Below, one piece after another: positions 14,087-40,649 of a DNA stretch of 64,000 nt. Numbering within the stretch: position 1 is the first letter of the stretch; every line of letters begins with the position of its first letter. Source of the stretch: a virus; IMG/VR virus record IMGVR_UViG_3300043449_001175, positions 1 through 64,000 of that record. One strand, written 5' to 3'. The notes below the pieces were generated by a model. It did no database searches. It was not told the DNA's origin and saw nothing but the letters and a program-made list of their open reading frames with translations. The translations under genes were made by a program, and so were the position numbers.

Positions 14087-14827
14087 TTATTCAATTATGT
14101 TATTTAACACAACATAATATAACTTTTTAAATCGTTTCATTGCGGTTCTAATTTCTTTTGTTGAAAGATTTGTCATTTCACGAATTGAAAGTAAAATAAT
14201 ATTTTTGTTAAATTTATTGTTATCAGTACCTAAAAAAATTGTTTTATAATTTTCAAATAATTCTAACAAAGCAATTCCTAATTTTTTTTCATTGTCAGTT
14301 AAAGGTTCATTTTCAACATAATTTCTTAATTCATTTAAAAACCCTTGTATAACATCATCGGCTTCTGTTTTTTCAAGTTCCATATAATATACCATATCAG
14401 GTCTTTGTTCTAAACTTGAAGAAATGTCTTCATATGAAATTTTTCTATTTGTATCTTTTTGGTCTTTAATGATTTGACCCATTAAATAATTTTTACAAAT
14501 AGTACCAAAATAAGAATAAGCCTTTTTTTCTTTTGATGGTTTAAACTTATCAACTTTTGTCATCAAAAATGAATGAGTGTCGGTATGAATATCTGTAAAG
14601 TCCATATCTTTACGATATAATTTATACCTTCGGATAATTGATGATATCATTTTATCTAAAGGACCCCTTAGAAACTCATTATAAATTGCGTTTTTTTCTT
14701 CAAAAGTTTCTGCGGTAAGATATCTCCTTACCGCAGCCTCTTCTGCCACGTCAAAATAGTTAACGTTAGTTGTTTTTCTACCTCGTTTTTTGACTGTGGT
14801 ATCCGTCAATGTTTCGGAAGAAAACAT
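14087..14827 (-). CDS. phage RNA polymerase sigma factor (gp55-like, probably late)
   Basis: NYF start and KFKPSKEKKAYSYFGTICKNYL resemble sigma region 2 of gp55-type factors. Confidence 0.7.
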   Translation of the reverse strand: MFSSETLTDTTVKKRGRKTTNVNYFDVAEEAAVRRYLTAETFEEKNAIYNEFLRGPLDKMISSIIRRYKLYRKDMDFTDIHTDTHSFLMTKVDKFKPSKEKKAYSYFGTICKNYLMGQIIKDQKDTNRKISYEDISSSLEQRPDMVYYMELEKTEADDVIQGFLNELRNYVENEPLTDNEKKLGIALLELFENYKTIFLGTDNNKFNKNIILLSIREMTNLSTKEIRTAMKRFKKLYYVVLNNIIE

Positions 14828-15633
14828 TAAGCATTTTGAACTTCGTATTTTATATTTCTATCGTCTTTAAAGAAATACTCTTTTTTCGCATTTGAAATCC
14901 AAAATTTAACTTCGTTTTCTGTCATAATTTCATCACCATTTTTGTAGTTCCAAAAAATAGAACCATCTCTCATACTGGTATGTTTGTATCCAAGTTTTGG
15001 TATTGTCATGATTTTTACTGAGTTGTAAGTCATTCTTAATAAGAACTCATAAACAAACGTCAATTTAATTGATGGTTTAAATCCACCAAAATCAACAAAC
15101 TTTTCTTTTTTTATTACCATACCTGCGGTTTGAAAATTTTGGTAATCCAACAAAGTTTCATTGTTTAAATAACCCATTTCTTGTGTAAAGTTTGCCGCAA
15201 ATGTTGCTTCGTTTGTAAATCCTGCAAATGTACCTTTGTTATCAACATCAACAACAATTGGTAAAAACGCATCAACATCAGGGTAAATTTCAGAATATTT
15301 TAAAACATTATCAAACCAAATATTTGAATACTCATCATCAAATTCAAAAAACGATATCCACTGACTTTCAGATTGCTCAACACCAAATGAAATTTGTTTT
15401 TGAAAAGACGGTTCACCGACATACTCAATAAGTTTTACATTTAGACTTTCAAAGTCATAATTTTTTAATTTAGTAACTAATTGTTCTTCTTGAGTATGAA
15501 CAATAATTAATTCATTAAATGTGGTTTTTTGAATTTTTAATGATTTAATGGCACTTTCAAAGTATTCATCAAAATCTTTTGCCAATGCTGATTTGATAGG
15601 TAGTATTATTGATAAATTAAGTTTCTTTTCCAT
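14827..15633 (-). CDS. glycosyltransferase, GT2/GT-A fold
   Basis: LSIILP start, FEFDDEY DxD-like motif, FGGFK. Confidence 0.8.
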   Translation of the reverse strand: MEKKLNLSIILPIKSALAKDFDEYFESAIKSLKIQKTTFNELIIVHTQEEQLVTKLKNYDFESLNVKLIEYVGEPSFQKQISFGVEQSESQWISFFEFDDEYSNIWFDNVLKYSEIYPDVDAFLPIVVDVDNKGTFAGFTNEATFAANFTQEMGYLNNETLLDYQNFQTAGMVIKKEKFVDFGGFKPSIKLTFVYEFLLRMTYNSVKIMTIPKLGYKHTSMRDGSIFWNYKNGDEIMTENEVKFWISNAKKEYFFKDDRNIKYEVQNA

Positions 15634-15635
15634 AA

Positions 15636-16688
15636 TTATACAGTTTCTTGTGTTACTTGGGCTTCAAAGGCCTCTTTACGTTTATTAATGAAGGATTCAA
15701 ATGTGTCAATAACTGACGTTTTAAAATTTTCTTGGTTTGTGAATTTTTCTGCGGTATTAAATCCTTCGGTGTACAAATCTTCTAAGACGTTATCCTCTAA
15801 CCATGTTTGAACAACATCGGCAATAACATCAACCATTTGATTTTGATTTTCAATCCAAATACCATTTTTTTCTGACATCCAACTTGGTTTTAGATTTGGT
15901 ACTTTACCAACAACTGGTACACCACTTTTCATACATTCTAAAGGAAATGTTCCAAATCCTGATGTTGGGTCAATCCAAACACCTAATAAACAATCTTGTA
16001 ATCCTTTAGCAAAATCATCTTGAGATAAACCTCTTAAATCTTTAAACGTAAAGAATCTATATTGTGGGTATTTCAAATAAAATTGTTTGATAATGTTAAG
16101 TCCTTCTCTTTGTTCACGAGCTGAAACACCAATTAATGTTTTGGCAGGAAATTTAGAAGGTTCAAAATTTGTGTGTAATGTTGGTTCTATAATATCAACA
16201 GATACATGTCTCATTAATGAGGTAATATAATCTTTTTGTTCTTCAGATGTTGTAATACACTTAAAGAAACCATATTGTTCCCAAGTACCACCAGGTGCCA
16301 ACGTTTCCAAAATATGGTCATACGCTTGACACAAAACAATCTTACCACAAGGTAGATTTTTAACTTGTTCCATAATAAAACCAAAAATTTCTGGAATAAC
16401 TAAAACATCTTCAGGTGCAATTGCTAAATTCTGACCCTCCAAAGTTTGATGTTGTAATTCATCATAAGAACCTTTTAACCAAGATGTAACTGGTGTGTAT
16501 TCTTTTTTTTCATACAACATAATAACATTATGTCCATTTTCTTTTAAAGTTAACGCCATTTCGTAAATGTATCGTATTGAGGCTTTGGCGTTTCCTTTTG
16601 TGTCCTGAACAAAAAAATAAATTCTGTTTAATTTCTCGTCAATGTTTTTAATTGACACTTTGATTTTTTCAATCATTTCGTTTTCCAT
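15636..16688 (-). CDS. glycosyltransferase, GT-B (GT4-like)
   Basis: VIPEI, SGFGTFPLECMKSGVPVVG signature. Confidence 0.75.
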   Translation of the reverse strand: MENEMIEKIKVSIKNIDEKLNRIYFFVQDTKGNAKASIRYIYEMALTLKENGHNVIMLYEKKEYTPVTSWLKGSYDELQHQTLEGQNLAIAPEDVLVIPEIFGFIMEQVKNLPCGKIVLCQAYDHILETLAPGGTWEQYGFFKCITTSEEQKDYITSLMRHVSVDIIEPTLHTNFEPSKFPAKTLIGVSAREQREGLNIIKQFYLKYPQYRFFTFKDLRGLSQDDFAKGLQDCLLGVWIDPTSGFGTFPLECMKSGVPVVGKVPNLKPSWMSEKNGIWIENQNQMVDVIADVVQTWLEDNVLEDLYTEGFNTAEKFTNQENFKTSVIDTFESFINKRKEAFEAQVTQETV

Positions 16689-16699
16689 ATACTTATTAC

Positions 16700-16975
16700 T
16701 TAAAATTTTTCAATTAATTTATTTACCAACATTGTGTTCCACGCAATTTTAAAAGGTATTGTAAGTTGTGATGAAACTTTATTAGCCAGTTTTTCATCAA
16801 TGTCTTCATTTTCACTTAAAATTACTTCTGTTAATGTTTTAATCATTTCATATTTAACAATAGAAATGTGTTGTTCAGGTTCTGTAGACGCTGATACTGG
16901 TGTAGATTGAATATTAACATATTTGTCAATATTATCTAAATTTATGTAGTAGTTTTCACCAAAAAGTGTTATCAT
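16700..16975 (-). CDS. hypothetical protein
   Basis: 91-aa ORF within the operon. Confidence 0.7.
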   Translation of the reverse strand: MITLFGENYYINLDNIDKYVNIQSTPVSASTEPEQHISIVKYEMIKTLTEVILSENEDIDEKLANKVSSQLTIPFKIAWNTMLVNKLIEKF

Positions 16976-17565
16976 ATTTCTATTAAGGTTTCAATTTTTT
17001 TATCCAAATCTTTTAATGTGGTAATAGTGTGTTCACACTCCGTTGTTAAATTATAGGATGTTTCGTATTTTATTAAAGTTTTGTTTTCAGTTTGTATTAA
17101 TAAATCAGGATTTGATGTTAATAGAATATCAAATTCGTCCCATATTTCATTTTTTGTTAGCTGATTATAAAATAATACTTTTTCAATCTCACAACCAAAT
17201 TTTGATATAAAAAATAAAGTTGCTGGTTTTGTTTTTCCAATTTGTTTTGAAATTAATAAAAACTTTACATTATCTTTGTATTTTACAATTAAATCATTTA
17301 AATCATAAAAGGTAGACATTTCACTTGATGGTGAATGACCAAATATTTCCATTGCAAATTCTTCATACATAAAAGACAAATACTCTTCATCTGTTTTAAA
17401 TTTAAAATGGTTTGAATATTCGGGCGTATTATAGGGTGTGACAATTTCATATTTAAAATCATCATCAACTAGTTCTAATTCATCAATAAAATATTTTTGA
17501 TAAATCTGTTCTATCTTGGTAAAAGTGTCTCTTAATACACCATCAATGTCTATTGCAATTCTCAT
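16972..17565 (-). CDS. HAD-family 5'(3')-nucleotidase-like protein
   Basis: MRIAIDIDGVLRD motif I. Confidence 0.7.
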   Translation of the reverse strand: MRIAIDIDGVLRDTFTKIEQIYQKYFIDELELVDDDFKYEIVTPYNTPEYSNHFKFKTDEEYLSFMYEEFAMEIFGHSPSSEMSTFYDLNDLIVKYKDNVKFLLISKQIGKTKPATLFFISKFGCEIEKVLFYNQLTKNEIWDEFDILLTSNPDLLIQTENKTLIKYETSYNLTTECEHTITTLKDLDKKIETLIEI

Positions 17566-18314
17566 TCTTCGTATTTACTTAAAATTTGTGAAATCAATGG
17601 GTTTCTAACGATATCTTTATCATTAAATTCAAAAACACCAATATCGTTTACACTTTTAAATTTTTCAATTGCGTCCCATAAACCTGATTGTGTTTTATCT
17701 TTATATCTGTCAGTTTGTTCTAAATCACCTGAAATAAAAAACTTACTTTTAAAACCAATTCTTGTTAATAAAAGTTTCATTTGTTTTGGGGTACTATTTT
17801 GAGATTCTTCAAAAATTAAAATTGAATTGTCAATGTTCATACCTCTCATATATGCCAAAGCAAATACTTCGATTGCTTCAATATTTTTTAAATGTTCTCT
17901 TTTATCTTTACCTATAATTTTATTTAATAGATAGTAAGATGGAAAAATATACGGGTCTAATTTTTCCTCAACATTACCTGGTAAAGCTCCAAGTTTTTCT
18001 TCAGCTTCAACCGCAGGTCTAACAATAATAATTTTTTCATACGGAGTTGTTGGGTCTGCAAGTAAATCCACAGCCGCTTTCATCGCAATGTAACTCTTAC
18101 CAACACCAGCCGGACCTGAACATATGACTATTTGATTTTTTTGTAATAAATCATAATATAATCTTTGATTTTCGGTTAAAAATTTTTCTTTTGTTGGTCT
18201 TGAAATTATAGATGTGATAATTTCTTTTTTAGATTTAGACGTAAATTTTGTATCTCCACTAAAAATAGTTGGTTTTGTAGAAACAGTTGGTTTCTTTCTT
18301 GGTTTTTTTTCCAT
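17562..18314 (-). CDS. phoH: PhoH-like ATPase
   Basis: GPAGVGKS, RPAVEA, LGALPG, AYMRG, EESQN, GDLEQTD, IVRNPLI. Confidence 0.95.
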   Translation of the reverse strand: MEKKPRKKPTVSTKPTIFSGDTKFTSKSKKEIITSIISRPTKEKFLTENQRLYYDLLQKNQIVICSGPAGVGKSYIAMKAAVDLLADPTTPYEKIIIVRPAVEAEEKLGALPGNVEEKLDPYIFPSYYLLNKIIGKDKREHLKNIEAIEVFALAYMRGMNIDNSILIFEESQNSTPKQMKLLLTRIGFKSKFFISGDLEQTDRYKDKTQSGLWDAIEKFKSVNDIGVFEFNDKDIVRNPLISQILSKYEE

Positions 18315-18351
18315 TAATTATAATTTATGAAAATTAATGATAAAAGAAACA

Positions 18352-19422
18352 TTAAAAATTAACGTATACTCCTTTAGGCGATGTACCTTGTTTAAAGAAT
18401 TTTACTTTTTCACCAAAATCAAAAATTAATTCTTTAACTACTTTCATGTTTTTTATAAATTCATCACTTTCAATAATGTAGACAGTGTAACCTTCTTTTA
18501 AAAAGTCTGACACCAATTCAGATTTTGGTGATTCTGTAATATCAATAGACATGTCTTTATATCCAATACCTGTAAACACAAAAGGTATTGTTTTGTCAGG
18601 ATTTAAATTTATAAAATGTTTTTTAATAAATTGATGATGATTTAAATTAAAATCTTCATTAACAAATGGTAACACAAAATCTAATTTGTTATCATTGGAC
18701 ACTTGACCTAATACTCTATTTTCTGTTGGGACCCAAGGACCACCAACACCAAATCCAAAATTAAAATTATTATTGGATATTGATTTATTATATCCTAAAC
18801 CTTTAAGTAATAATTTTGTTTCATCTGAAGTTCCACAATTTAACATTAATTCACCTATAAAATTGGCAAAATTAATTTTATTATGGATAAAAGAACTATG
18901 GGCTAATTTGTAAATTTCGGCAGACTTACTTGTCATTGAAATGACATTCAAATTTTTATTTTGTTTTGGTTGGAATATGTCTGTAATTGTATTAATTACT
19001 TGTAAATCAAGACTACCTATTACCATTGTTTCTAAGTTGATTAGAGATGATAATATGTTGTCAGACTCAACAATTAGAGGGAGGTAACAAACACTCAAAT
19101 TCATTGGGTTTAATATCTCCATAATTTTTTTAGTGTCACCAGGATTTAATGTGGAACATATGACAAATGTTTTATTATATAATGGAATTTCATCTTCAAA
19201 TGAAATTCCAAAATCTTCAACCACATTCATAACATTTTTTATGTCTAAAAAATTTGATGGTAAAATATTTGTATCAACACAACAAAAAATAACATCTGAG
19301 TTTTTTATGACTTCAACGTTATCACCATCAACATCAGAAACATAAATTTCATGTTGTTGTTCGGATAAAAAATTTAATAAATTTAGACCTAAATTACCAA
19401 CTCCAATTATACCAATATTCAT
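18352..19422 (-). CDS. UDP-glucose/GDP-mannose dehydrogenase family protein, degenerate active site
   Basis: GIIGVGNLG, STLNPG, SAEIYKLA, GFGVGGPW (Cys->Trp), YK...ITESP. Confidence 0.75.
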   Translation of the reverse strand: MNIGIIGVGNLGLNLLNFLSEQQHEIYVSDVDGDNVEVIKNSDVIFCCVDTNILPSNFLDIKNVMNVVEDFGISFEDEIPLYNKTFVICSTLNPGDTKKIMEILNPMNLSVCYLPLIVESDNILSSLINLETMVIGSLDLQVINTITDIFQPKQNKNLNVISMTSKSAEIYKLAHSSFIHNKINFANFIGELMLNCGTSDETKLLLKGLGYNKSISNNNFNFGFGVGGPWVPTENRVLGQVSNDNKLDFVLPFVNEDFNLNHHQFIKKHFINLNPDKTIPFVFTGIGYKDMSIDITESPKSELVSDFLKEGYTVYIIESDEFIKNMKVVKELIFDFGEKVKFFKQGTSPKGVYVNF

Positions 19423-20201
19423 ATTTTAATCCATTTATCACAATATAAGTCATTAGTATTTAAATGTGAATTAGAAATACCAAACCATTTAGATGGAATA
19501 ATTACTTGTTTATTTTCATTATTATTTAACCAAGCTCCCCACCAACTAAATGTTGAATTGGCAATTATATTGTTTTTACACATAGACATTAAATACAAAT
19601 CCTCATAATCTTGATTACCTGATATAAATGTTTTGTTATTTAAAAAACTAAAATTTTCTTCACACCATTTAATATCGTCAGAAAATATAACATAGTGTTT
19701 ATCTTCACCAATAAGTTTAATTGCGTCTGTATAATATTCAATTGGTTGAGTTGGGTGATATGTTGGTAACCCTAAATAATCACCTCTTCTAACATGAATT
19801 GAACAAGTATCGTCATTTATAATATTTTTATATTTTTCTAATAAACGAGTATTTGTTTCATTATCAATTTCAAAAAGTTCTAACAATTTATTTCTGTAGT
19901 TTATAAAATATTTTTCACTTTGAAAATGACCGATTAATTTAATGTTACCCTCAATTTTTGGTATAGGTGTGTAGTGAAACCCACCTTCACCAATATGTTT
20001 TAAATTTACTAAATTATCTAAAAATTTTACATTTCTAAAAATATTATCAATGTAAATTGTGTATGGTTTGTGGGGTGATTGTGTGTCTGTTATATCACAT
20101 ATCATTTCTTTTTTATCTCTTAATGACACACTATACGTTGCAGCAATTTGAAACAACATATTTCCCAACCCTCCCATTAATTTAGATGATACTATTTCCA
20201 T
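19419..20201 (-). CDS. alpha-1,2-fucosyltransferase-like (GT11)
   Basis: GGLGNMLFQ, FQSEKYF, HVRRGDY, FSDD, ANSTFSWWGAWL. Confidence 0.92.
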   Translation of the reverse strand: MEIVSSKLMGGLGNMLFQIAATYSVSLRDKKEMICDITDTQSPHKPYTIYIDNIFRNVKFLDNLVNLKHIGEGGFHYTPIPKIEGNIKLIGHFQSEKYFINYRNKLLELFEIDNETNTRLLEKYKNIINDDTCSIHVRRGDYLGLPTYHPTQPIEYYTDAIKLIGEDKHYVIFSDDIKWCEENFSFLNNKTFISGNQDYEDLYLMSMCKNNIIANSTFSWWGAWLNNNENKQVIIPSKWFGISNSHLNTNDLYCDKWIKI

Positions 20202-20893
20202 GAATCTAAATAATTTTTGTTATTAACATGATTTATTTCTTTCCAAATGTCTTTATTGTATAATGAACTAATTTGATGTTGGTGTACCCTGTTAGTCACT
20301 AAACAATTAGAAAGTATTGTAGGTAAACCATATCTAACATACAGTTGATGGTACATGTCACAATCCATTAACATTGTTAAGTTTTCGTCAAAAAGACAAG
20401 GATTATAATTTCTAAATGATAATACAGACGGGGAACTAATTGTATTTACACCTTCTTTAATTCTGTCGTTCCAACGTGGTGTCATTTGGTTTGAGTGAGT
20501 TAAACCATCATCATGGGTATGATTACATCCACACACCAACCACATACACTCATTGTTTTCAAATTCCTTTGAAATTAATTCTAGTGCCCTTTTGTCATAC
20601 AAATAATCGTCTTGAAATATAATTTTGATAATATCTCCATCAGCATTTATAATTGAGTTGTTAGTGTTCGCGGGACCATTACCTAATAAGTTTTTATTTT
20701 TAAAATATTTTATTTCAAATTTAGTAGAATATTCGTCACATAATAATTTAATTTTGTCATCTTTACTGTGGTCGGATATTATGACATTAAAATTTTTATA
20801 TGTTTGAAATAATAAAACCTCAAAGTTATTTTTCAAAAATTCAACTCCTTTACCATATTGTTCCCATGTAGGTATACAAATTGATATTTTCAT
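20192..20893 (-). CDS. glycosyltransferase GT2
   Basis: ISICIPT, SDHSKD, FQDD, SPSV; ends in TAG. Confidence 0.88.
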   Translation of the reverse strand: MKISICIPTWEQYGKGVEFLKNNFEVLLFQTYKNFNVIISDHSKDDKIKLLCDEYSTKFEIKYFKNKNLLGNGPANTNNSIINADGDIIKIIFQDDYLYDKRALELISKEFENNECMWLVCGCNHTHDDGLTHSNQMTPRWNDRIKEGVNTISSPSVLSFRNYNPCLFDENLTMLMDCDMYHQLYVRYGLPTILSNCLVTNRVHQHQISSLYNKDIWKEINHVNNKNYLDSWK

Positions 20894-20894
20894 T

Positions 20895-21542
20895 TTATTT
20901 TTTCTTTAATAGAAAAATACTATTGGAATCAAAATCAGTAAAGTCTTTTAATAAATCATATGTTAAAGTCCCAATAATATCGTATTCTTCCGTATTTAAT
21001 TTTGAGACAATTTCATTTACTGCACCATGTACTTCGGGGCTATATTGAAAATCTAAATAATCGTCAAATGCTATGTATCCACCACTTTTAACCAAACCAA
21101 TATAATTATAAAAATCGTTTAACACTCCATTTGTAGTGTGGTCTCCATCAATAAATAAAAAATCAACTTCATTAATTTCACTTTTAATTTGGTTAACTAT
21201 ATTAATATCTTGGGAATTACCTTGAAAATATTTAAAGGTACTTAATTCATTTTTAAAATTTGCAACATTTCTTTGTACCACTTCAGGATTAATGGGTTCT
21301 CCTAAATCCAAAGTAAAACAATTTGTTGGGTATATATGTGATGCAATTAATGAAATTGAGCCGCCAGCAAATGAACCAATTTCTAAATATGTTATTGGTT
21401 TATCACCAAATTCAGTTCTAATATCATATAAAATATGTGTGTGTTTATGGAATGTGGTGCCTTCCATGGTTTCAGAAATTTTATTAAGTTTTATTAATGA
21501 TTCTTCTGTTATTTTAAATGTATAATTGTTATTTTTGTTCAT
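20895..21542 (-). CDS. class I SAM-dependent methyltransferase (Methyltransf_24-like)
   Basis: LEIGSFAGGS, FIDGDH, GGYIAFDDY. Confidence 0.88.
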   Translation of the reverse strand: MNKNNNYTFKITEESLIKLNKISETMEGTTFHKHTHILYDIRTEFGDKPITYLEIGSFAGGSISLIASHIYPTNCFTLDLGEPINPEVVQRNVANFKNELSTFKYFQGNSQDINIVNQIKSEINEVDFLFIDGDHTTNGVLNDFYNYIGLVKSGGYIAFDDYLDFQYSPEVHGAVNEIVSKLNTEEYDIIGTLTYDLLKDFTDFDSNSIFLLKKK

Positions 21543-22233
21543 ATCCTTCTTCTAAATGTTTACATGTTATTTTATTAATTAAACAACCCGGTCTGTTGAT
21601 ACTTCTTAAATAATCAGACATTCTTTTCCATAAATCAGCATCACCCGGTAAACCAACGTTACCTTCTTCTTCATAAACATTTCTATGTCTTAAAGGAATC
21701 TCCTTAAAATTTATACATACCGATGAATGAATTAAACCTTCTGGTCTTGGGTAAAAGTCACAAATTTCATCAGTAGAATTTACCTCAGGTAAAACTCTAC
21801 CACCAACATAATGTGATTTTGTACATAACCATAGTGCTCCCGTTCTCTCAATTCCCATTTTAAGACTTGATAGATGATTTGGCTCCCATTCATCATCGTG
21901 GTCTAAATGACAAACATAATCATATCCCATCTCCACGGATTTATTTATTCCATAGTTATTTGCGGCGCAACCACCATATTTCCATACTAACCATTTATCC
22001 GTGTATTTGTCTCTTTCTGCAGCTACGGGTAAGTTTTCATAGTACATTCTTTCATTGTCATATGATGAACATATTTCCACAAATTCATCATTATTTTCAT
22101 ACCTGTCACCAATAACAAACACTTTAAAATTTTGATAATCTTGTGCAAAAATAGAATTTAATGCTTTTCTTAAATAAGATGGTGTTGAACCATCATTTCT
22201 TTGGTAGGTGGTAATTACTATACTAAAATTCAT
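21529..22233 (-). CDS. glycosyltransferase GT2
   Basis: SIVITTY, LDHDDEWEPNHL, HSSV, DADLW. Confidence 0.88.
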   Translation of the reverse strand: MNFSIVITTYQRNDGSTPSYLRKALNSIFAQDYQNFKVFVIGDRYENNDEFVEICSSYDNERMYYENLPVAAERDKYTDKWLVWKYGGCAANNYGINKSVEMGYDYVCHLDHDDEWEPNHLSSLKMGIERTGALWLCTKSHYVGGRVLPEVNSTDEICDFYPRPEGLIHSSVCINFKEIPLRHRNVYEEEGNVGLPGDADLWKRMSDYLRSINRPGCLINKITCKHLEEGYEQK

Positions 22234-22961
22234 GATTTAGTTAATGGTTTGTAAATGTATGGATTAGGAAACCCTCTTTCGATAAAATTAGTTTCTAACA
22301 TATTAGTGAATCGGTAATGACAAGACCATCTAATGGTGTCGTTTGTTATATCACCTGACGAGTGTATCAAGAGTGTTGAAAAAATAACAATATCACCCAC
22401 TTCCATTTCAAATTGTATTGGTTCTCCCTCTATTTTTACGGAGGCAAAACCACCAACCGTGTTATAGGGTTGTGGACCTAATTTGTGAGTCTCAGGCCAT
22501 ATTAAAATTGACCCATTTTCTTTATTTACATCAACTAAAGGAACCCACACAACTAATGAGTCCATACTTGATAACATAGATGACCAATCTTGATGTGGGG
22601 GTGTTTTATAATAAACTTCTTCTTTTGCCAATTTAGGGTGATTAAAAAACAATACAGGTCGAGTACAAAGATTTGGTAATTCAATACCCAAATTTTTTAT
22701 TGTATCAATTAATTTTTCTTCAACAGGAAGTTTGTAAAGTTCAATTAATCCTGTTTGAATTATTTTACCACAGTTAATAAAAATTGATTCGTGTTCATTG
22801 AATAATTTTATCATGTTGTCTTTAAATTCACCATCATAACCAAATCTATCAAATTGTATTTGAAAAATTCTTTCGGCCCCTTTTCTTAAATTATCAATAT
22901 AATCTTTTTCAAAGAAGTTTTTAAGAATTACGTATCCTTTTTCTTTAAGTTGTTGTTGCAT
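22230..22961 (-). CDS. phytanoyl-CoA dioxygenase family 2OG-Fe(II) oxygenase
   Basis: PHQD, WVPLVD...NG, GDIVIF...HSSG. Confidence 0.88.
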   Translation of the reverse strand: MQQQLKEKGYVILKNFFEKDYIDNLRKGAERIFQIQFDRFGYDGEFKDNMIKLFNEHESIFINCGKIIQTGLIELYKLPVEEKLIDTIKNLGIELPNLCTRPVLFFNHPKLAKEEVYYKTPPHQDWSSMLSSMDSLVVWVPLVDVNKENGSILIWPETHKLGPQPYNTVGGFASVKIEGEPIQFEMEVGDIVIFSTLLIHSSGDITNDTIRWSCHYRFTNMLETNFIERGFPNPYIYKPLTKS

Positions 22962-23841: not shown

Positions 23842-23842
23842 A

Positions 23843-31158: not shown

Positions 31159-31161
31159 ATA

Positions 31162-33178: not shown

Positions 33179-36007
33179 ATGGCTTATCAGAACATTAACC
33201 AATATGTCTATAAAAAATGGTTTTTATCACCATTTTTAGAAGTTACGGACCTTTCTTTGGCTTCAGATGAACGAGATTATAACGAAGAAGTTATTTTTTC
33301 GCCATATATTATTGGAGCATATGATGGTGATGTATTGCCAGTTAAATTTGATATAAATTTTACAGGAAGTAATCAAAATTTTTCATTAACATACGGAAAT
33401 TATGATTTTGATAACATTTTAGTATCCGAAAATTACTACAACCCAACTGATGTTTTAATAGATTGTTATTCTTCAAAAACAATTTGTGATATTGGATTAA
33501 CAGGTACTGATAACGGATTGGTTACTGGAATGACAGGTCAATCAATAACTTATACAAATGGTTTGTTACCAACAAATGAAAAATTTGATAGATATAAATT
33601 TGATAGGAGATTAAAATTACACCAAGTTACTGGTTACACGTGGACTCCAAACACAAGATTTTCAGGTGTAACGGCAGGAACAGTTTATGATGTGGTATCT
33701 TACAGCGCTCAAACTGTTGGAAATTACCAAGAATTGTATGGTGGTTTTTATCAAGGGTTTTATGAGTTATTTGGTTACGATTATAAAATTTTACCTGAAA
33801 GATATCCAAAAGGGTGGACGGTAGAAATGACTTTAAAGCCGAGATTGTCCAATGCTTATACTCCAAGTTCAGGACAAACAACATTAAATCAATATTACCC
33901 AAATAATGCTGGTATTTTCTTTTATATGGGTACAAGGGCTGAAAATAAATATTGGCACCACGCAGCAGGAACAAATTCAGGCGACCCATCATACTATAGA
34001 ATCACAACACCACTAACAGGTTTAACAAGTTGTTTTTGTGTTGATTTATATCCTAATTATACAACATCGTCAACTACGGTATTTGATTTAACAACAAGCG
34101 GTGAAACATTAACAGTATCTTCAGATTTATCATGGGTTTCAGGTGATACCGCATTAATATATCACGATGATGCACAATATCTTATTGGTACTGTTGTTGG
34201 TTACACATCTGAAACAGGGAATTTTCAATTTGTAACAACAAAACGAGTTGGTTTAGGAACTATATATTTTTCAATTGTAACTAATCCGGGTTATTTAGAA
34301 TATAACGATTCTAATTGTGTGTTAGTATATCCGCCAACAGGAACAACAGATTCACATACTCAAGTAGACCCTTGTTGTTGTCCTGAACCACCAGTTCCAA
34401 TTCCAGAACATAATCCTGAATATGATTCAATGTCAAACGCAATTGCAATTAAATTCAGTGGTGACCCACATAATCCAAAAATTTGTGTAAGAACTTTAAC
34501 AATAACAGGTGATTGTATTTTTTCGGGTTCTTGTGAAACATTGGGTCCTGATTCTGTTACTGGATATTCAATTAACAATTACTGTTCAGAAAGAGGAATT
34601 TACGATAATTGTAGTGGAACTACATACGATGACCAAGAACACTGGGTTTTGGTTGATGTCGTCTTTGAACGATACACGTGGTTAGATACCTGCGATTTAT
34701 ATTATCGTGGAGGTCTTGGAACAATTACAACATTTCCATATACCGCAAGTACGGCTAATAATTCGGTTTCATTAATATCGCCACCAATCACACATTACGA
34801 ATTAATCCCAACAATCGAGGAACTTGTTGAATTAAATAATCTTTGGATATTAGAAAAAATATATCGTAGAGGTAGAATAAAGGTTTATATCAACGGTAGA
34901 ATATTTGATGTATTTGAAGATGTTGAAGAAATTATACCACGTGGTTTATTTGGTCATAAAGAAAATCAAGTCGGAGTACCATTCAATATATCTTGGGGTG
35001 GTGGTACACAAGGACTACACGAAAATTTAATTTTTAGTGCGGTACCAACCAATGATATAAATTACTATACTCAAGACCCTGAATTGTTTCCACCAAACAT
35101 TTTAAGTGGTACAACATTAAGTGGACTCACAACTAATATATTAATTGAACAAAATTTTGCCGGAACTTTTGATGGTGCGATATCAAAGTTTAATATGTAT
35201 GCAAAACCATTATCGGTTCCTGAAATTCAACACAATGCAAGAATTTTAAGACCAATTTATAATTTTTTAAATCCATATTGTTTAGATTGTGGTGCAAATG
35301 TAACACCAACCCCAACACCAACAACAACAGTTACACCAACACCAACCTCAGTTACTCCAACTCCAACACCTACACCATCGGTAACACCAGGTCTTTCACC
35401 AACACCAACCCCAACACCGACAAGTACACCATCACCTTATTTTGCATATCTATTTATAGAACCTCAATCAGGTTCAACTCTTATTGGTGAATACATGTAC
35501 AATTTGGGTTCAACATTCTATGGATTTACAAATAACTCAGCGCCAGACAATGACAACACAAATCCTGACTTATTCAATGATGACATGAATAATTATGTGT
35601 CTTTCTCAGGATGGAGTAATGGTTCATTCCCTTCAGTGAGAACTCAAACAGTTCCACAGTCTTCGGGTGGTGTTGATTCATTTGGTAATTCAATATCGGC
35701 ATATAATTTCACAACACACGAAGTACCAATTAATACAGTTAGTGGTAACTCTTGGTATACGTGGATTATCCCAAATGATGCGATAAATGATGGAATACAA
35801 CAAAAAATTGCTTATAGTGTAAATGGTAATCCAAACGCATTGACAACATCAATTATGGACAGCTCAATTTATTCTAGTACGTTTACTTATACAGGTACTA
35901 CAATTCCTGTTGGTACTTATAGAGTTTACACAACATTTGCTGACTTGTCATTCTATATAAATAACAACTTTAATACCGTATATTTTAAAGGTGATACTGT
36001 AATTTAA
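33179..36007 (+). CDS. large virion protein with LamG/ConA-like region and Thr-Pro linker
   Basis: GWTVEM, KVYINGR, FAGTFDGAISKFNMYAKPLS.PEI; TPTP linker; many [ST]GxT motifs. Confidence 0.7.
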   Translation: MAYQNINQYVYKKWFLSPFLEVTDLSLASDERDYNEEVIFSPYIIGAYDGDVLPVKFDINFTGSNQNFSLTYGNYDFDNILVSENYYNPTDVLIDCYSSKTICDIGLTGTDNGLVTGMTGQSITYTNGLLPTNEKFDRYKFDRRLKLHQVTGYTWTPNTRFSGVTAGTVYDVVSYSAQTVGNYQELYGGFYQGFYELFGYDYKILPERYPKGWTVEMTLKPRLSNAYTPSSGQTTLNQYYPNNAGIFFYMGTRAENKYWHHAAGTNSGDPSYYRITTPLTGLTSCFCVDLYPNYTTSSTTVFDLTTSGETLTVSSDLSWVSGDTALIYHDDAQYLIGTVVGYTSETGNFQFVTTKRVGLGTIYFSIVTNPGYLEYNDSNCVLVYPPTGTTDSHTQVDPCCCPEPPVPIPEHNPEYDSMSNAIAIKFSGDPHNPKICVRTLTITGDCIFSGSCETLGPDSVTGYSINNYCSERGIYDNCSGTTYDDQEHWVLVDVVFERYTWLDTCDLYYRGGLGTITTFPYTASTANNSVSLISPPITHYELIPTIEELVELNNLWILEKIYRRGRIKVYINGRIFDVFEDVEEIIPRGLFGHKENQVGVPFNISWGGGTQGLHENLIFSAVPTNDINYYTQDPELFPPNILSGTTLSGLTTNILIEQNFAGTFDGAISKFNMYAKPLSVPEIQHNARILRPIYNFLNPYCLDCGANVTPTPTPTTTVTPTPTSVTPTPTPTPSVTPGLSPTPTPTPTSTPSPYFAYLFIEPQSGSTLIGEYMYNLGSTFYGFTNNSAPDNDNTNPDLFNDDMNNYVSFSGWSNGSFPSVRTQTVPQSSGGVDSFGNSISAYNFTTHEVPINTVSGNSWYTWIIPNDAINDGIQQKIAYSVNGNPNALTTSIMDSSIYSSTFTYTGTTIPVGTYRVYTTFADLSFYINNNFNTVYFKGDTVI
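35300..35436 (+). repeat. Thr-Pro coding repeat
   Basis: [46 protein letters not shown]. Confidence 0.9.
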
Positions 36008-36114
36008 AATTTATCCTTTACCTCATCACAAGTATTATAAAAAAAGGTTTTTAACAATTAATTTTCCTATTAACTTTTCTATTTCTTTAATTAGTTTTAT
36101 GAAAAACTATTTTA

Positions 36115-37362
36115 ATGAAAATATTTGTTCAAATTGCCTCTTATCGTGACCCACAGTTGGTTCACACAATCAAAAACATGATTGAAAATGCGAAGAAACC
36201 AAAAAATTTACGATTTGGTATTGCAAGACAATTTCATCCCAATGATAAATTTGATGACTTGTCAGAGTACGATAAAGATAAAAGATTCAAAATCATTAAC
36301 ATTCCATACGAAGAATCAAAAGGTGTTTGTTGGGCAAGAAACCTAACACAACAACTTTATGATAATGAAGAATATACACTTCAAATTGATTCTCACATGA
36401 GGTTTGCTCCAAATTGGGATGATGAGATGATTAAGATGATTAAACAACTCCAAAAGAAAGGTCATGAAAAACCATTACTTACAGGTTATGTTTCGTCATT
36501 TGACCCCGACAATGACCCTCAAGGGAGAATGCAAGAGCCATGGAGAATGGCGTTTGACAGATTTATTCCCGAAGGTGCGGTATTCTTCTTACCTGAAACA
36601 ATTCCAGGTTGGCAGAACTTAACAGAACCTGTCACATCTCGTTTCTATTCGGCTCACTACTGTTTCACTTTGGGACAATTCTCAAAAGAAGTACAACACA
36701 ACCCTGAATACTATTTTCACGGTGAAGAAATATCAATTGCCGCTCGTGCTTATACTTGGGGTTATGATTTGTTCCACCCACATAAAGTTTTGATTTGGCA
36801 CGAATATACTCGTAAAGGTAGAACAAAACAATGGGATGACGATAAAGCTTGGGGTGAGAAAAACAAACATTCACATTTTACAAACAGAAAGTTGTTTGGT
36901 ATGGACGGTGAACAACAAGAAGGACATGATGGTCCTTATGGTTTTGGTCCCGTTAGAACATTAAGAGATTACGAAAAGTACTCTGGTTTGTTGTTTGAAA
37001 AACGTGCGGTACAACAATATACTTTGGATAAGAACTACCCACCGAACCCATATAATTTTGAATCTGAAGAAGAGTGGAAGAAAAACTTTGCTCAAGTTTT
37101 CAAACATTGTATTGATATTGGATTCTCTCAAGTACCTGAAAAAGATTATGATTTTTGGGTGGTTGCTTTTCACGGAGAAAATGATGAAACACTTTATAGA
37201 AAAGATGCTGACATCAATGAGATTAATAGAATGTTAAATGACCCTGATGGATATTGTAAAGTATGGAGAGAGTTCCAAACAGAACATAAACCAAAGTATT
37301 GGGTTGTTTGGCCTCACTCAGTATCAAAAGACTGGTGTGAAAGGATTACGGGGAACCTGTAA
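36115..37362 (+). CDS. GT60-like polypeptide/hydroxyproline GlcNAc transferase
   Basis: IFVQIASYRDP, SKGVCWAR, LQIDSHMRF..WD, FHGEE...AR.YT.G.D signatures of the Skp1 GlcNAc-transferase family. Confidence 0.85.
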   Translation: MKIFVQIASYRDPQLVHTIKNMIENAKKPKNLRFGIARQFHPNDKFDDLSEYDKDKRFKIINIPYEESKGVCWARNLTQQLYDNEEYTLQIDSHMRFAPNWDDEMIKMIKQLQKKGHEKPLLTGYVSSFDPDNDPQGRMQEPWRMAFDRFIPEGAVFFLPETIPGWQNLTEPVTSRFYSAHYCFTLGQFSKEVQHNPEYYFHGEEISIAARAYTWGYDLFHPHKVLIWHEYTRKGRTKQWDDDKAWGEKNKHSHFTNRKLFGMDGEQQEGHDGPYGFGPVRTLRDYEKYSGLLFEKRAVQQYTLDKNYPPNPYNFESEEEWKKNFAQVFKHCIDIGFSQVPEKDYDFWVVAFHGENDETLYRKDADINEINRMLNDPDGYCKVWREFQTEHKPKYWVVWPHSVSKDWCERITGNL

Positions 37363-37377: not shown

Positions 37378-38112
37378 ATGAATATTACTAATATCCCTAA
37401 GTTTGTCGTTAATTTAGAAAGACGACCTGACCGATTAGAACATATCCAAAAAGAAATGGATTATATGGGTTGGGAATACGAGTTATTCAAAGCCGTTGAT
37501 TTAAATAATCATGGTGGTTGTACTTTATCACACACACAAATCATTAAACTTGCCAAAGAACGAGGATATGACTCGGTTATGGTGATTGAAGATGATTGTA
37601 CTTTTTTACCGTATTCGAAGGATTTGATAAATAAAATTGAAACCGAATCTGATGAGTTTGAATTTGGAATTATTAATCTTGCACCAACCTTAAACCGAGT
37701 AGTCAACCGTAGTGAAGAACAACCTTTATTTTTAGATATTACAAATTTACCGCCAAAGAAAGAACATGAAAGAGGTATATTTGCAACTAACATGATAATT
37801 TATCATAGTTCAATTTATGATAAAGTTTTGGAAATGGAAAAAAAAGAAAACTTAGGTTATTATGCAATAGATGATTACATTTATCAATTTGTTTTACCAA
37901 TCAGACAAAGTTATTGTCCAATATTACCAGTTGCCCCTCAAATGAGTAGTTGGTCTGATGTATCTCAAGGACAATACAATAATTTTTATACTCAAACTTA
38001 TAATTGGAATTTATATAGTCCGTGTAAAATACCTTCAGGATATTTACATGGTACATTAACAAACGAACTTAAAACAAATAAACAACATAAAGAATTTACA
38101 TATGTCAGTTAA
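37378..38112 (+). CDS. glycosyltransferase GT25-like
   Basis: VVNLERRPDR, AVD, GCTLSH, VIEDD. Confidence 0.85.
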   Translation: MNITNIPKFVVNLERRPDRLEHIQKEMDYMGWEYELFKAVDLNNHGGCTLSHTQIIKLAKERGYDSVMVIEDDCTFLPYSKDLINKIETESDEFEFGIINLAPTLNRVVNRSEEQPLFLDITNLPPKKEHERGIFATNMIIYHSSIYDKVLEMEKKENLGYYAIDDYIYQFVLPIRQSYCPILPVAPQMSSWSDVSQGQYNNFYTQTYNWNLYSPCKIPSGYLHGTLTNELKTNKQHKEFTYVS

Positions 38113-38983
38113 ATTTATTACATCAATATATAGCGATTTGTATGGTACTGAATACGGTGGTCGAATTGGTAGAGGAGGTCATTATCGATATAGTTTATTA
38201 TCGCTTTTAAAAATGACTAATGCTGATTTTTTATGTTATACATCAGATAGAGAGTTACCTTCATTACTCACATTTTTTTATGAAACACATGGTATATCAT
38301 CAGATAAACTAAAATTTCAAGTGTTTGATATTGCAAATACAAAATTCAAAGATTTAATTAATCAATATAAAGATGTTGAAGTAACTAAAAAATCAGATAG
38401 ATGTATTGAAGTACAATATAGTAAATTCCATTGGTGGTGGAACGAAGATAAGTCTTATGATTATTATTATTGGATTGACGCTGGATTGTCACATTGCGGA
38501 TTAATCCCAGTTAAATACTTGGTTGGTACTCACCCCGAACAAAGATATTATGAATCAACTTTATTCAATAATGATTTTTTGAAGAATCTAATTGAAGATA
38601 CTGGCGATAAATTCTTAATTCTTGGAAAAGAAAATGACCGAAATTATTGGTCAGGCACATTGGACCCTAAATGGTATACTAATTGGGAAAGAGGTGTTCA
38701 TATTATTGGAGGACTATTTGGTGGTCATAGAGATAATTGGGATAAAATTGTTACACTATTTGAAGATTATACTAAAAATGTTATTACTGAGGATAAAGGT
38801 TTACCCCATGAAGAAAATATAATGACATTAATGTACTATAATCATAAAGAATTATTTGAACGTAAACATTTTGATATTTGGTGGTGTAGGGATAATGCAC
38901 CTGCAGGTGTTTCAGATGAAATGTTTGAACAAAATAAAAGTTTTTTTAAAATTTTAGAAGAATTTAATAGAATATATGAGTAA
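38102..38983 (+). CDS. HtrL/WlaTC-like protein (putative glycosyltransferase)
   Basis: YYYWIDAGL, IGGLFGG, EENIM; paralogous to N-half of next gene. Confidence 0.6.
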   Translation: MSVKFITSIYSDLYGTEYGGRIGRGGHYRYSLLSLLKMTNADFLCYTSDRELPSLLTFFYETHGISSDKLKFQVFDIANTKFKDLINQYKDVEVTKKSDRCIEVQYSKFHWWWNEDKSYDYYYWIDAGLSHCGLIPVKYLVGTHPEQRYYESTLFNNDFLKNLIEDTGDKFLILGKENDRNYWSGTLDPKWYTNWERGVHIIGGLFGGHRDNWDKIVTLFEDYTKNVITEDKGLPHEENIMTLMYYNHKELFERKHFDIWWCRDNAPAGVSDEMFEQNKSFFKILEEFNRIYE

Positions 38984-40649
38984 TATAACTTTAGTAACAG
39001 GTCTTTGGAATATTAAGAGAGATGAACTTGGTGAAGGTTGGTCTCGTTCATTCCAACATTATTTGGATAAATTTGAACAACTACTTAAGGTTGAAAATCC
39101 AATGATTATATTTGGTGATTCTGACTTGGAATCATTTGTTTTTGAAAGACGAAACAAAGATAATACAATGTTTATCTCTCGTAGTCAAGAATGGTTCAAA
39201 AACGAATTTTATGACAAAATACAAACAATCAGAACAAATCCTGATTGGTATAATCAAGCAGGTTGGTTACCACAATCAACACAAGCAAGATTAGAAATGT
39301 ACAATCCTTTGGTAATGTCAAAGGTTTTCTTATTAAATGATGCCAAAATTATGGACCCATTTAATTCTGATATGATGTTTTGGATTGATGCTGGTTTAAC
39401 AAATACTGTTCATCCAGGTTATTTTACACACGATAAAGTTTTGGAGAAATTACCTAACTATGTTAATAAATTTTCATTTGTTTGTTTCCCATATCAAGCC
39501 GAAAACGAGATTCACGGATTTAACTTTAATCAAATTAATGGAATTGTTGGTGAAAAGGTAGAAATGGTTGCACGTGGTGGGTTCTTTGGTGGTCCAAAAC
39601 ACACAATAGGAGACATTAACGGGATTTATTACAATTTGTTATCATCCACATTATCTCGTGGACTTATGGGAACTGAGGAGTCAATATTCTCAATCATGTG
39701 TTACAAACACTCCGATTTAATTGATTACTTTGAAATAGAATCTAATGGTTTATTTGGTAAGTTCTTTGAAGATTTGAAAAATGAAACATTAGAAAGAAAA
39801 AACAAACAAGGTTTTACACCAATTAATGACGATTTGAATCCTGATAACGCTGCTTTGTATGTAATTACATTTAATAGTCCAAAACAATTTGAAACATTGA
39901 TTGATTCAATGACTCAATATGACAAAGATTTTTTAGATAAACCAAAAAAGTTTTTATTGAATAACTCATCTGATTTATCAACTACCGAAAGATACTCGGA
40001 ACTTTGTGAAATATATGGTTTTGAACATATCAAGAAAGATAATTTAGGTATTTGTGGTGGTAGACAATGGGTTGCAGAACATTCTGAAGAAAATGGGTTT
40101 GATTTTCATTTTTTCTTCGAGGATGACATGTTCTTTTACCCCCAAAAAGGAGATGTGTGTAGAAACGGATTTAATAGATACGTTTCAAATTTATATAAGA
40201 ACACATTAGAAATAACAAAAAAGAATCATTTTGATTTTTTAAAGTTTAATTACAGTGAGTTTTATGGTGATAATGGTACCCAATGGTCGTGGTACAATGT
40301 TCCACAGAACTTTAGAATAGAACATTGGCCTGAAAAACCAAATTTACCTGTTCACGGTCAAGACCCAAATGCTCCAAGAACAAAATTCAAACATGTAAGA
40401 ACACACAATGGTATTCCATTCGTATCAGGTGAAATTTATTATTGTAACTGGCCACAAGTTGTTACTCGTCATGGTAACAAGAAAATGTTTTTAGAAACAA
40501 CTTGGGCACACCCGTTCGAGCAGACATGGATGAGTTTTATTTTTCAAGAAACAATTAAGGGAAAAATCAATCCCGGACTATTACTTATGACCCCAACTGA
40601 ACATGATAGGTTTGAATTTTATGATGGTTCATTAAGAAAAGAATCTTAA
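38976..40649 (+). CDS. HtrL/YibB-like domain fused to a GT-A-like domain
   Basis: TLVTGLWNI.R, YNPLVMSK, FWIDAGL, RGGFFGG; C-half FFEDDM. Confidence 0.7.
   Translation: MSNITLVTGLWNIKRDELGEGWSRSFQHYLDKFEQLLKVENPMIIFGDSDLESFVFERRNKDNTMFISRSQEWFKNEFYDKIQTIRTNPDWYNQAGWLPQSTQARLEMYNPLVMSKVFLLNDAKIMDPFNSDMMFWIDAGLTNTVHPGYFTHDKVLEKLPNYVNKFSFVCFPYQAENEIHGFNFNQINGIVGEKVEMVARGGFFGGPKHTIGDINGIYYNLLSSTLSRGLMGTEESIFSIMCYKHSDLIDYFEIESNGLFGKFFEDLKNETLERKNKQGFTPINDDLNPDNAALYVITFNSPKQFETLIDSMTQYDKDFLDKPKKFLLNNSSDLSTTERYSELCEIYGFEHIKKDNLGICGGRQWVAEHSEENGFDFHFFFEDDMFFYPQKGDVCRNGFNRYVSNLYKNTLEITKKNHFDFLKFNYSEFYGDNGTQWSWYNVPQNFRIEHWPEKPNLPVHGQDPNAPRTKFKHVRTHNGIPFVSGEIYYCNWPQVVTRHGNKKMFLETTWAHPFEQTWMSFIFQETIKGKINPGLLLMTPTEHDRFEFYDGSLRKES

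Follow-up and report, generated by a model that had tools for sequence, protein, structure and literature searches.

A GT60-led gene set as a candidate mucin-type O-glycosylation system of an uncultured freshwater jumbo phage

The sequence analysed here (the window) comprises the first 64 kb of a 99-kb contig from IMG/VR, IMGVR_UViG_3300043449_001175, with an estimated completeness of about 34%; the GC content of the window is low, about 30%. Positions 14827-40649 carry 11 glycosyltransferase (GT) genes with 13 GT domains, as found by Pfam, PHROGs and NCBIfam profile searches of the window proteins. The same stretch encodes a nucleotide-sugar dehydrogenase-like protein, two methyltransferases, an N-acetyltransferase of the NeuD/PglB/VioB type, WbqC, a PhyH 2-oxoglutarate (2OG) oxygenase and a DegT-like protein (Table 1). 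A first-pass annotation of this DNA had described about a dozen GT genes plus tailoring enzymes, and the profiles bear out that count, two of the GT calls being weak. The encoded proteins are soluble; none of the proteins of the window showed a convincing membrane segment in a Kyte-Doolittle scan, as the annotation had stated in finding no membrane protein evident. Genes for PhoH, a dUTPase, a 3'-5' exonuclease, a WYL protein and an HTH protein are interspersed among the GT genes, so the stretch is not a pure sugar island. At its plus-strand end lies a gene of family GT60, and this gene, together with proteins bearing threonine-proline (Thr-Pro) tracts that may serve as its acceptors, is the core of the phage-encoded O-glycosylation system proposed below.

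The GT60 enzyme scores 229.4 bits against the PF11397 profile (cut-off 21), which is also matched in G001, the closest near-complete relative (295 kb, 98% complete, about 93% protein identity), in the marine relative G006 and in the cultured phage XacN1. Its DxH motif, D92-S-H94, is invariant in 48 distinct phage copies, that of XacN1 included, and D92 and H94 are present in 27 diverse homologues. Substitution of DxH for DxD characterises GT27 and GT60, two families that O-glycosylate Ser/Thr residues of polypeptides (PMC7185993). The predicted structure (predicted local distance difference test, pLDDT, 94.3) has an extra β-rich C-terminal domain of about 95 amino acids (aa). The top PDB folds returned by Foldseek are N-acetylgalactosamine (GalNAc) transferases GalNAc-T4, T2, T1, T7, T10 and T12, TgGalNAc-T3 and PGANT9, with E values from 6e-10 to 5e-8; mucin-type polypeptide GalNAc-transferases of human, Drosophila and Toxoplasma make up about 25 of the 30 top PDB matches. 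Sequence searches of the PDB gave no match for this enzyme, the 557-aa GT, the GT2-like protein encoded at 14827 or the GT-B protein encoded at 29292. Characterised GT60 enzymes are polypeptide α-N-acetylglucosamine (GlcNAc) transferases acting on Thr-rich mucin domains or on hydroxyproline of Skp1, and some of them are soluble and cytosolic (PMC8724618, PMC3769586). By profile, motif and modelled fold, the phage protein is a GT60-family enzyme resembling polypeptide N-acetylhexosamine (HexNAc) transferases, and it is a candidate initiating enzyme.

The family as a whole is large, with 4,492 clusters at 50% identity, and many of its members are multi-copy fusions; for this enzyme there are more than 7,000 clusters at 90% identity. 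Giant homologues of 1600-2460 aa have up to four matched GT60 stretches each. A literature search for GT60 in phages returned nothing relevant.

Two genes of the window encode Thr-Pro-tract proteins. The shorter product, which follows the capsid protein, has 65 TP/PT dipeptides and an S+T content of 38%. The longer one has look-alikes in viruses only, with weak Laminin_G_3 leads, and the GT60 gene lies directly 3' of it, an arrangement like that of mycobacteriophages, in which GT genes adjoin those of the structural proteins they modify. Two further Thr-Pro genes on the contig (93314-96052 and 96434-97426) belong to the series of large genes that follows a gp6-like baseplate wedge gene, and one of them has weak Hoc-like matches. 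Placement of Thr-Pro genes 3' of the capsid gene and of the baseplate wedge gene gives the proposed acceptors a structural context. Just beyond the stop codon of 5261-6664, extra (Thr-Pro)-coding matches at 6719-6753 suggest a short Thr-Pro open reading frame (ORF) or a repeat remnant.

Mucin-like Thr-Pro stalks and S/T-rich surface insertions had both been reported for virion proteins of this genome. The tracts are confirmed, as is the enrichment in the tail sheath protein, where S+T reaches 30-33% in residues 101-300; in the capsid insertion it is only modestly raised (19% versus 13%). The sheath protein (51255-54449) is 1064 aa long, with the sheath-family match confined to the last 290 or so residues, and the 613-aa gp23-type capsid protein (3113-4954), when compared with the gp23 profile, has about 225 inserted residues; both carry large extra surface domains. 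As a separate observation, 13 putative structural proteins together contain 52 copies of the motif [ST]-G-x-[ST], whereas local shuffling in stretches of 30 residues yields 20.3 +/- 4.3 (z 7.4). No such excess is seen for the reversed motif [ST]-x-G-[ST] (18 versus 20.2 expected), and non-structural proteins have six copies of the forward motif versus 8.5 expected. Sites are found in 33179-36007 (17 motifs), 51255-54449 (residues 127-345), 8515-9999 and 3113-4954; the motif may mark another site of modification or be characteristic of the fold of the inserted domains.

The association of GT60 with Thr-Pro proteins is seen at three levels. Firstly, the GT60 gene is present in 80 of 80 related loci, and a co-oriented Thr-Pro ORF lies no more than 8 kb upstream of it in 55 of 57 loci, being the nearest ORF in 32 of the 57. 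The number and length of these ORFs turn over, with one to four per locus and 164-2409 aa each. Since synteny is inherited, this linkage counts as one lineage only.

Secondly, GT60 was found among 50,697 phage records only in XacN1, Xoo-sp13, CM1 and RAS14, and the GT60-positive records in which tracts were counted have more of them than GT60-negative relatives. Stretches coding for (Thr-Pro)x4 were counted with a DNA pattern, whose backward-read control gave 0-4. There are 109 in XacN1, 72 in Xoo-sp13, 59 in CM1, 42 in G001, 32 in G000, 31 in G002, 21 in G003 and four in G006, which represents a third, marine lineage. Seven phages with related capsids, in which GT60 was absent by tblastn and hidden Markov model searches (the positive controls matched), have none (the Xanthomonas jumbo phage XaC1, SCTP-2, V45v66, LR756508, Mel-JY01 and immuto) or one (RM378). 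The first-pass annotation had named co-occurrence of GT sets with Thr-Pro proteins as a check on its proposal, and the check comes out in its favour, with 4-109 stretches in GT60-positive phages and 0-1 in the negative ones.

Thirdly, a Thr-Pro tract lies no more than 10 kb from GT60 in 20 of 62 bacterial loci, versus one of 62 when the sequence is reversed as a control; the distance is at most 4 kb in 17 of the 20, mostly with the tract on the same strand. The loci come from phyla and classes including Gemmatimonadota, Verrucomicrobiota, Acidobacteriota, Actinomycetota and Alpha-, Beta- and Gammaproteobacteria. This bacterial co-occurrence is the most independent of the lines of evidence.

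Phage XacN1 shares more than GT60. Its cluster comprises GT60 ORF334 (47% identity), the 293-aa HtrL-like ORF332 (30%) and the 557-aa dual GT ORF330 (41%, full length), and lies about 9 kb from ORF325, which encodes a 3313-aa Thr-Pro protein and follows baseplate wedge genes; other tract-bearing genes of XacN1 adjoin the tail sheath and completion genes. Purified XacN1 virions show at least two Schiff-stained glycoprotein bands, for which the authors suggest that phage GTs are responsible (PMC5852040).

Downstream of GT60 in the window, two consecutive genes encode HtrL-like proteins, as the earlier annotation had it. The 293-aa product of the first shares a WIDAGL motif with the 557-aa family, and profile-profile alignment (Table 1) makes it a paralogue of the N-terminal domain of the protein encoded next. 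The model of that 557-aa protein (pLDDT 80) contains two GT-A domains, and its top Foldseek matches are tandem GT-A enzymes, namely LH3, mimivirus R699, K4CP, LARGE1, COLGALT1 and heparosan synthase. Because of this likeness to bifunctional LH3, COLGALT1, LARGE1, chondroitin polymerase and heparosan synthase, the modelled protein is a candidate two-step or polymerising extender. Its match to TAGT (22.4 bits against a cut-off of 27.5, E 1.3e-4) was considered as a pointer to DNA glycosylation and rejected, being below the cut-off, in a generic fold and unaccompanied by precursor enzymes. Known routes of DNA glycosylation, such as those of the T4 α- and β-GTs, the TET-associated GTs and 5hoC arabinosylation, start from a hydroxylated pyrimidine, by way of a thymidylate-synthase homologue or a TET/5mYOX enzyme paired with a C5-methyltransferase. 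Searches with PF00303, PF02511 (ThyX) and PF12851 (TET) found none of them in G000, G001 or G002, the PF12851 search having matched no control genome either; ThyA was found only in the more distant G003 and G004. The absence of thymidylate-synthase and TET homologues from the closest near-complete relative argues against DNA as the acceptor.

The remaining sugar genes, listed in Table 1, lie on the minus strand. The first two GT genes, for which the calls are weak, are conserved: 14827-15633 is kept in G001, G004 and G005 at 63-94% identity, and 15636-16688 is likewise conserved among relatives. The dehydrogenase-like gene has a counterpart in G001 only, among the relatives compared. The tandem GT-A gene is conserved in relatives in one half only (40-44%), and the GT-B gene at 29292-30503 is 62-95% identical to the copies in G001, G004 and G005. 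The DegT-like gene had been annotated as an aminotransferase; it was dropped as a working enzyme of that kind, since most of the aminotransferase fold is lost from its 213 residues. A 198-aa homologue (30% identity) exists in G005, and the short form may be kept for another role. Several small ORFs have no Pfam or PHROGs match.

Table 1. Sugar genes and candidate acceptor genes of the window, with the basis of each assignment.
Feature	Position	Strand	Basis and remarks
GT-A/GT2-like, conserved backbone, weak call	14827-15633	-	PF00535 E 1.8e-3, under cut-off
GT-B/GT4-like, conserved backbone, weak call	15636-16688	-	PF00534 E 2.4e-3; PDB 8xsg (putative glycosyltransferase) E 0.014
Diverged nucleotide-sugar dehydrogenase-like	18352-19422	-	PF03721 + PF00984; TIGR03026 107 bits, under cut-off
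Variable island 1 (GT11 through DegT-like)	19419-26436	-	Pfam + NCBIfam
GT11	19419-20201	-	E 5e-25
GT2	20192-20893	-	Profile match
CmcI-like methyltransferase	20895-21542	-	Profile match
GT2	21529-22233	-	Profile match
PhyH 2OG oxygenase	22230-22961	-	Profile match
Protein of no assigned family	22945-23904	-	Island 1
NeuD/PglB/VioB N-acetyltransferase	23843-24532	-	161 bits, barely above cut-off
S-adenosylmethionine (SAM) methyltransferase	24489-25100	-	Profile match
WbqC	25097-25765	-	E 2e-40
DegT-like, truncated	25795-26436	-	213 aa; about 70 residues matched of 360-residue family
Tandem GT-A (Glyco_tranf_2_5 + GT2)	26460-27986	-	PF13712 7.6e-22, PF00535 2.8e-11
Conserved GT-B	29292-30503	-	phrog_7162 glycosyltransferase, 1.3e-47
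GT60	36115-37362	+	PF11397 1.1e-67
GT25, variable island 2	37378-38112	+	PF01755 2.2e-13; in about 30/80 loci
HtrL-like, single-domain	38102-38983	+	No Pfam match; hhalign to 557-aa family 98.5%, E 3.6e-15
HtrL_YibB domain + GT-A domain with EDD motif	38976-40649	+	PF09612 7e-18
Candidate acceptor, 467 aa	5261-6664	+	About 330 aa of TPTETPTN-type repeat, flanked by a small domain at each terminus; directly 3' of gp23-type capsid gene
Candidate acceptor, 942 aa	33179-36007	+	About 60-aa Thr-Pro linker, residues about 709-770; directly upstream of GT60, same strand

Comparison with relatives shows that 14827-40649, which the earlier annotation had treated as one system, is a backbone of GT genes flanking two variable islands, with unrelated genes between. 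The islands differ even in the 93%-identical G001. The gene order shared with G001, G004 and G005 is capsid module, sigma-like gene, GT2-like, GT-B-like, PhoH, variable island 1, tandem GT-A, dUTPase, exonuclease, GT-B, small proteins, one to five Thr-Pro proteins, GT60, variable island 2 and DNA polymerase. In all three relatives the position of island 1 is occupied by other sugar genes; G001 lacks island 1 of the window (19.4-26.4 kb) and has a Fringe/GT31-like gene in its place, and its GT60 gene is accompanied by GT10, GT11, an FkbM methyltransferase, GT61, a kinase fusion and a class II aldolase. G004 possesses a nearly complete GDP-sugar set, comprising a HAD and nucleotidyl-transferase fusion, a GDP-mannose 4,6-dehydratase (GMD; 1e-122) and an epimerase/reductase, together with two full-length DegT aminotransferases, a GNAT acetyltransferase, a CmcI-like methyltransferase, GT10, GT11 and GT2. 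Because island contents differ between the window, G001 and G004, the clade, judged by its gene content, exchanges glycan-building cassettes much as bacteria exchange O-antigen genes.

The glycan had been described as probably fucosylated and methylated. Such chemistry is plausible from the enzymes encoded: GT11 and the CmcI-like methyltransferase are found here, and the fucose-type genes of relatives comprise GMD, GMER-like, GT10 and GT11. Fucose, perosamine-like amino sugars and O-methylation are accordingly plausible, though predicted, components.

Upstream motifs bear on the timing of expression. The heptamer TATTTAT, which looks late-promoter-like, is located on the coding strand 12-45 nt 5' of many structural and accessory genes, including those starting at 393, 1460, 5261, 8515, 33179, 40666, 41251, 49344, 51255, 56871 and 58738, among others. 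Both Thr-Pro genes of the window carry it, the distance to the ATG of 33179-36007 being 12 nt; it precedes none of the GT and tailoring genes, nor any gene from 14827 to 31853. This distribution suggests that expression of the enzymes may follow a programme other than that of their proposed substrates, probably an earlier one. A second element, TTTATGAAAAA, has just two exact copies in the window, at 30512-30522 (-) and 36096-36106 (+), each 8 nt before a start codon, those of the GT-B gene at 29292-30503 and of GT60. It was set aside as a shared control element, since exact copies precede just 11 of 75 GT60 genes and one of 20 GT-B genes in relatives; it stands as an observation. Looser T-rich/TG/A-rich forms are common in relatives, some with a terminator hairpin that separates GT60 from the Thr-Pro gene.

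The reading considered rather probable is that this phage encodes a soluble, cytoplasmic, mucin-type O-glycosylation of its own Thr-Pro-tract proteins. In the proposed pathway, GT60 would transfer the first HexNAc from a UDP-sugar onto Thr residues of the Thr-Pro stalks of late proteins, among them the two encoded in the window and the two encoded further along the contig. The chain would then be extended by the two HtrL-like enzymes and the backbone GT-B and GT-A enzymes, with outer decorations added by the two strain-variable islands; in this phage these would involve the GT11 fucosyltransferase, the GT2 enzymes, GT25, the two methyltransferases, the VioB-type N-acetyltransferase, WbqC and the 2OG oxygenase. 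Fibre-like or decoration proteins of the particle would thereby acquire a glycan coat that differs from strain to strain. The acceptor, donor sugar, enzyme order and biological role in this scheme are presumptive, as is the participation of the genes at 14.8-30.5 kb in the same pathway as GT60. For the earlier claim of a glycan coat on the particle, a cytoplasmic O-glycosylation route to Thr-Pro tracts is thus supported by GT60 family and fold, synteny, co-occurrence and the XacN1 Schiff bands, and the making of one glycan by all the GTs is presumed.

Several points weigh against this reading. Thr-Pro linkers occur unglycosylated too. Virion O-glycosylation, held with the same rather favourable expectation, is a prediction for this phage clade. 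The Thr-Pro proteins are presumed virion parts from their gene context, and 33179-36007 has no structural-protein match in Pfam or PHROGs. The phage co-occurrence spans at most three lineages and its counts are non-independent; for two thirds of the bacterial GT60 loci the 10-kb neighbourhood contains no tract; and no Thr-Pro gene directly adjoins GT60 in XacN1 or in the marine lineage G006. The Schiff bands of XacN1 are neither assigned to proteins nor tied to a gene (PMC5852040). Finally, GT2, GT4, GT11, WbqC and VioB-type enzymes are typical O-antigen cluster families, and the minus-strand GT genes lack the late motif, are set among replication and nucleotide genes and have no direct tie to GT60.

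One alternative is that roles are split between two or more systems, the GT60/HtrL-like module (36.1-40.6 kb) acting on Thr-Pro proteins and the minus-strand genes (14.8-30.5 kb) on something else, be it glycans of the host envelope, a small molecule or some other protein of the phage. Unrelated genes separate the two blocks, which lie on opposite strands, the minus-strand block sits amid PhoH, dUTPase and exonuclease genes without the late motif, and only GT60 and the HtrL-like genes are held in common with XacN1. However, both blocks contain variable islands with the same kinds of enzyme, G001 has GT11, GT10 and a methyltransferase beside GT60 instead, and neither the thymidylate-synthase/TET searches of G000-G002 nor the lipid-carrier/flippase searches of G000-G004 found machinery for an alternative acceptor. 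A division of this sort is unlikely, yet it is a serious alternative.

According to a second alternative, host lipid-linked intermediates of lipopolysaccharide (LPS), capsule or exopolysaccharide are the substrates, modified by the GTs and tailoring enzymes at the inner membrane face in the course of infection. GT2, GT4, GT11, GT25, WbqC, the VioB-type acetyltransferase and DegT are indeed classic O-antigen families, relatives have GMD, epimerase/reductase and DegT genes, and cyanophages, whose GT-rich gene sets are usually interpreted in this way, offer a precedent with 13 GTs, including GT10, GT11 and GT25 (PMC12801897). The first-pass annotation had argued from the lack of Wzx/Wzy to a cytoplasmic product; the absence holds, but the argument is weaker than stated, because soluble O-antigen GTs normally take lipid-linked acceptors made by other enzymes. 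For the same reason, host remodelling keeps some likelihood for the minus-strand genes. Nevertheless, an initiating phosphoglycosyl-transferase, a flippase, a polymerase and a ligase were not found in the 98%-complete relative; PF02397, PF00953, PF01943 and PF04932 were absent in G000-G004, with control genomes matched, and ABC transporters were not searched for genome-wide. Remodelling of the host surface also leaves unexplained the GT60 family with its Thr-Pro tie and the virion glycoprotein bands of XacN1, and it is judged improbable for the set as a whole.

It is very improbable that some or all of the GTs glycosylate modified bases of phage DNA as a protection against restriction, as in T4, RB69 and TET-associated GT clusters: the phage is T4-like, its GT genes lie near PolB, dUTPase and exonuclease genes, one of them shows the weak TAGT match, and LPS-enzyme-like phage GTs adding mono- to trisaccharides to DNA are known (10.1101/2023.12.21.572611; PMC13326640), but the precursor enzymes are missing from G000, G001 and G002, the GT-A domain of the 557-aa protein folds like generic tandem GT-A enzymes acting on proteins or polysaccharides, GT60 folds like polypeptide GalNAc-transferases, and eleven GTs with acetyl, methyl and amino tailoring go beyond any known DNA glycan.

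O-glycosylation of Thr-Pro proteins therefore stays the preferred reading. A bolder form of it, held only tentatively, is that a GT60-initiated cytoplasmic mucin-type system exists in at least two jumbo lineages and many bacteria and, in these phages, builds strain-specific fucosylated, O-methylated, acetamido-dideoxy glycans on the Thr-Pro stalks of particle proteins; the conserved tandem GT-A enzyme may polymerise a portion of the chain, and the islands would constitute a virion 'serotype' under diversifying selection.

The source is an uncultured freshwater low-GC jumbo myovirus of a distant-T4 kind. This attribution follows from the phage genes of the window (T4-type prohead protease, gp23-type capsid protein, tail sheath protein, family-B DNA polymerase and SNF2 helicase, along with a fused superoxide dismutase), from the distance of its capsid relatives, the 295-kb size of G001 and the low GC content; the nearest cultured capsid relatives, at 35-43% identity, are Microcystis phage Mel-JY01, Flavobacterium phage immuto and Rhodothermus phage RM378. 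In bacterial bins, the GT60 genes most like that of the window (70-72% identity) are found in metagenome-assembled genomes of Saprospiraceae and Bacteroidia, and a host among the Bacteroidota would fit, given these closest copies. The copies are on low-GC contigs, one being CALJOK010000014.1 (230 kb, Saprospiraceae bin, GC 0.34), which are probably phage contigs binned with their host. The phage may belong to the 'moraphages', aquatic phages of 200-307 kb with predicted Bacteroidota hosts, all members of which have four core GT orthogroups and heat-shock genes (PMC12619734). The size of G001 and the conserved GTs fit this group; HSP70 is absent in G001 and present in G003. Outside the sugar genes, 45940-47484 encodes an Fe/Mn superoxide dismutase domain (residues 40-228) fused to about 280 residues of no assigned function, with relatives about 43% identical.

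To our knowledge, glycosylation of phage-particle proteins has been demonstrated in no more than a few mycobacteriophages, with a hint of it in XacN1, and the large GT sets of big aquatic phages have so far been read, without test, as modifying the host surface or DNA. Glycosylation of phage virions is thus already known; what would be new is the proposed GT60-led mucin-type system with O-antigen-like islands. If the preferred reading is true, an abundant freshwater phage group carries a glycan coat, possibly affecting adsorption, stickiness to mucus and particles, grazing and recognition by host defences. GT60, characterised in protists only, would gain a prokaryotic and viral function, and Thr-Pro 'linkers', which are widespread in proteins of bacteria and phages, would have to be regarded as candidate sites of glycosylation. 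Four cultured phages (XacN1, Xoo-sp13, CM1 and RAS14) have the same core genes, which makes the question directly testable.

Among known systems, the protist GT60 enzymes, namely the Trypanosoma cruzi mucin polypeptide α-GlcNAc-transferase, the Dictyostelium Golgi enzyme and cytosolic Gnt1, share the PF11397 family and the DxH motif. The activity that defines the family is a retaining one, in which GlcNAc from UDP-GlcNAc is placed on Thr/Ser or hydroxyproline residues of a polypeptide. The window enzyme is soluble like Gnt1, its putative acceptors are Thr-rich, Pro-containing and mucin-like, and separate GTs would extend the chain after initiation. In contrast to the protist enzymes, it is phage-encoded and has the extra C-terminal domain, its donor, acceptor and anomeric outcome are predicted by family only, and its extenders are HtrL-like, GT25, GT11 and GT2 enzymes rather than the protist set.

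In mycobacteriophages, soluble GTs encoded by the phage work in the cytoplasm on structural proteins of the same phage, according to the account of Freeman et al. 2023 given in PMC12619734. The likeness is that of phage-encoded soluble GTs for own proteins, which for the window phage is predicted from genes. As far as that account goes, one to few GTs act there on C-terminal extensions of capsid or tail-tube subunits, whereas the window has 11 GT genes with GT60 as the proposed initiator, fibre- or decoration-like proteins whose Thr-Pro stalks are long and internal, and tailoring islands that vary between strains. XacN1 resembles the window in its clustered GT60, HtrL-like and dual GT genes, in the many Thr-Pro tracts of its tail and baseplate modules and in its Schiff-positive virion proteins; it was annotated with two GTs only, and neither the GT60 chemistry nor the Thr-Pro link was drawn there (PMC5852040). 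It also differs in having a carbamoyltransferase and GT9 instead of variable fucose/methyl islands.

Giant viruses, with their chlorovirus capsid and mimivirus fibril glycans, likewise encode cytosolic GTs and nucleotide-sugar enzymes (PMC9614988, PMC5408694). Similar enzymes here are the VioB-type acetyltransferase, aminotransferase and methyltransferases, with GMD and GMER-like enzymes in relatives, and clade-specific glycans on particle surface proteins are a further likeness, predicted only for the window phage. The difference is that the window belongs to a tailed phage of a bacterial host, with a proposed GT60 start on Thr-Pro rather than N-linked capsid glycans or fibril polysaccharides. 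The large T4-like cyanophages P-SSM2, S-SCSM1 and S-SCSM2R, in their 'LPS / cell-wall modification' gene sets, have up to 13 GTs (GT1, GT2, GT10, GT11 and GT25) and sugar epimerases in variable regions, with inferred function (PMC12801897); no GT60 was found in cyanophage records in the search of the 50,697 phage records. These cyanophage sets have been read as modifying the host surface or DNA (PMC12801897), whereas the GT60/Thr-Pro link of the window points to the phage's own proteins.

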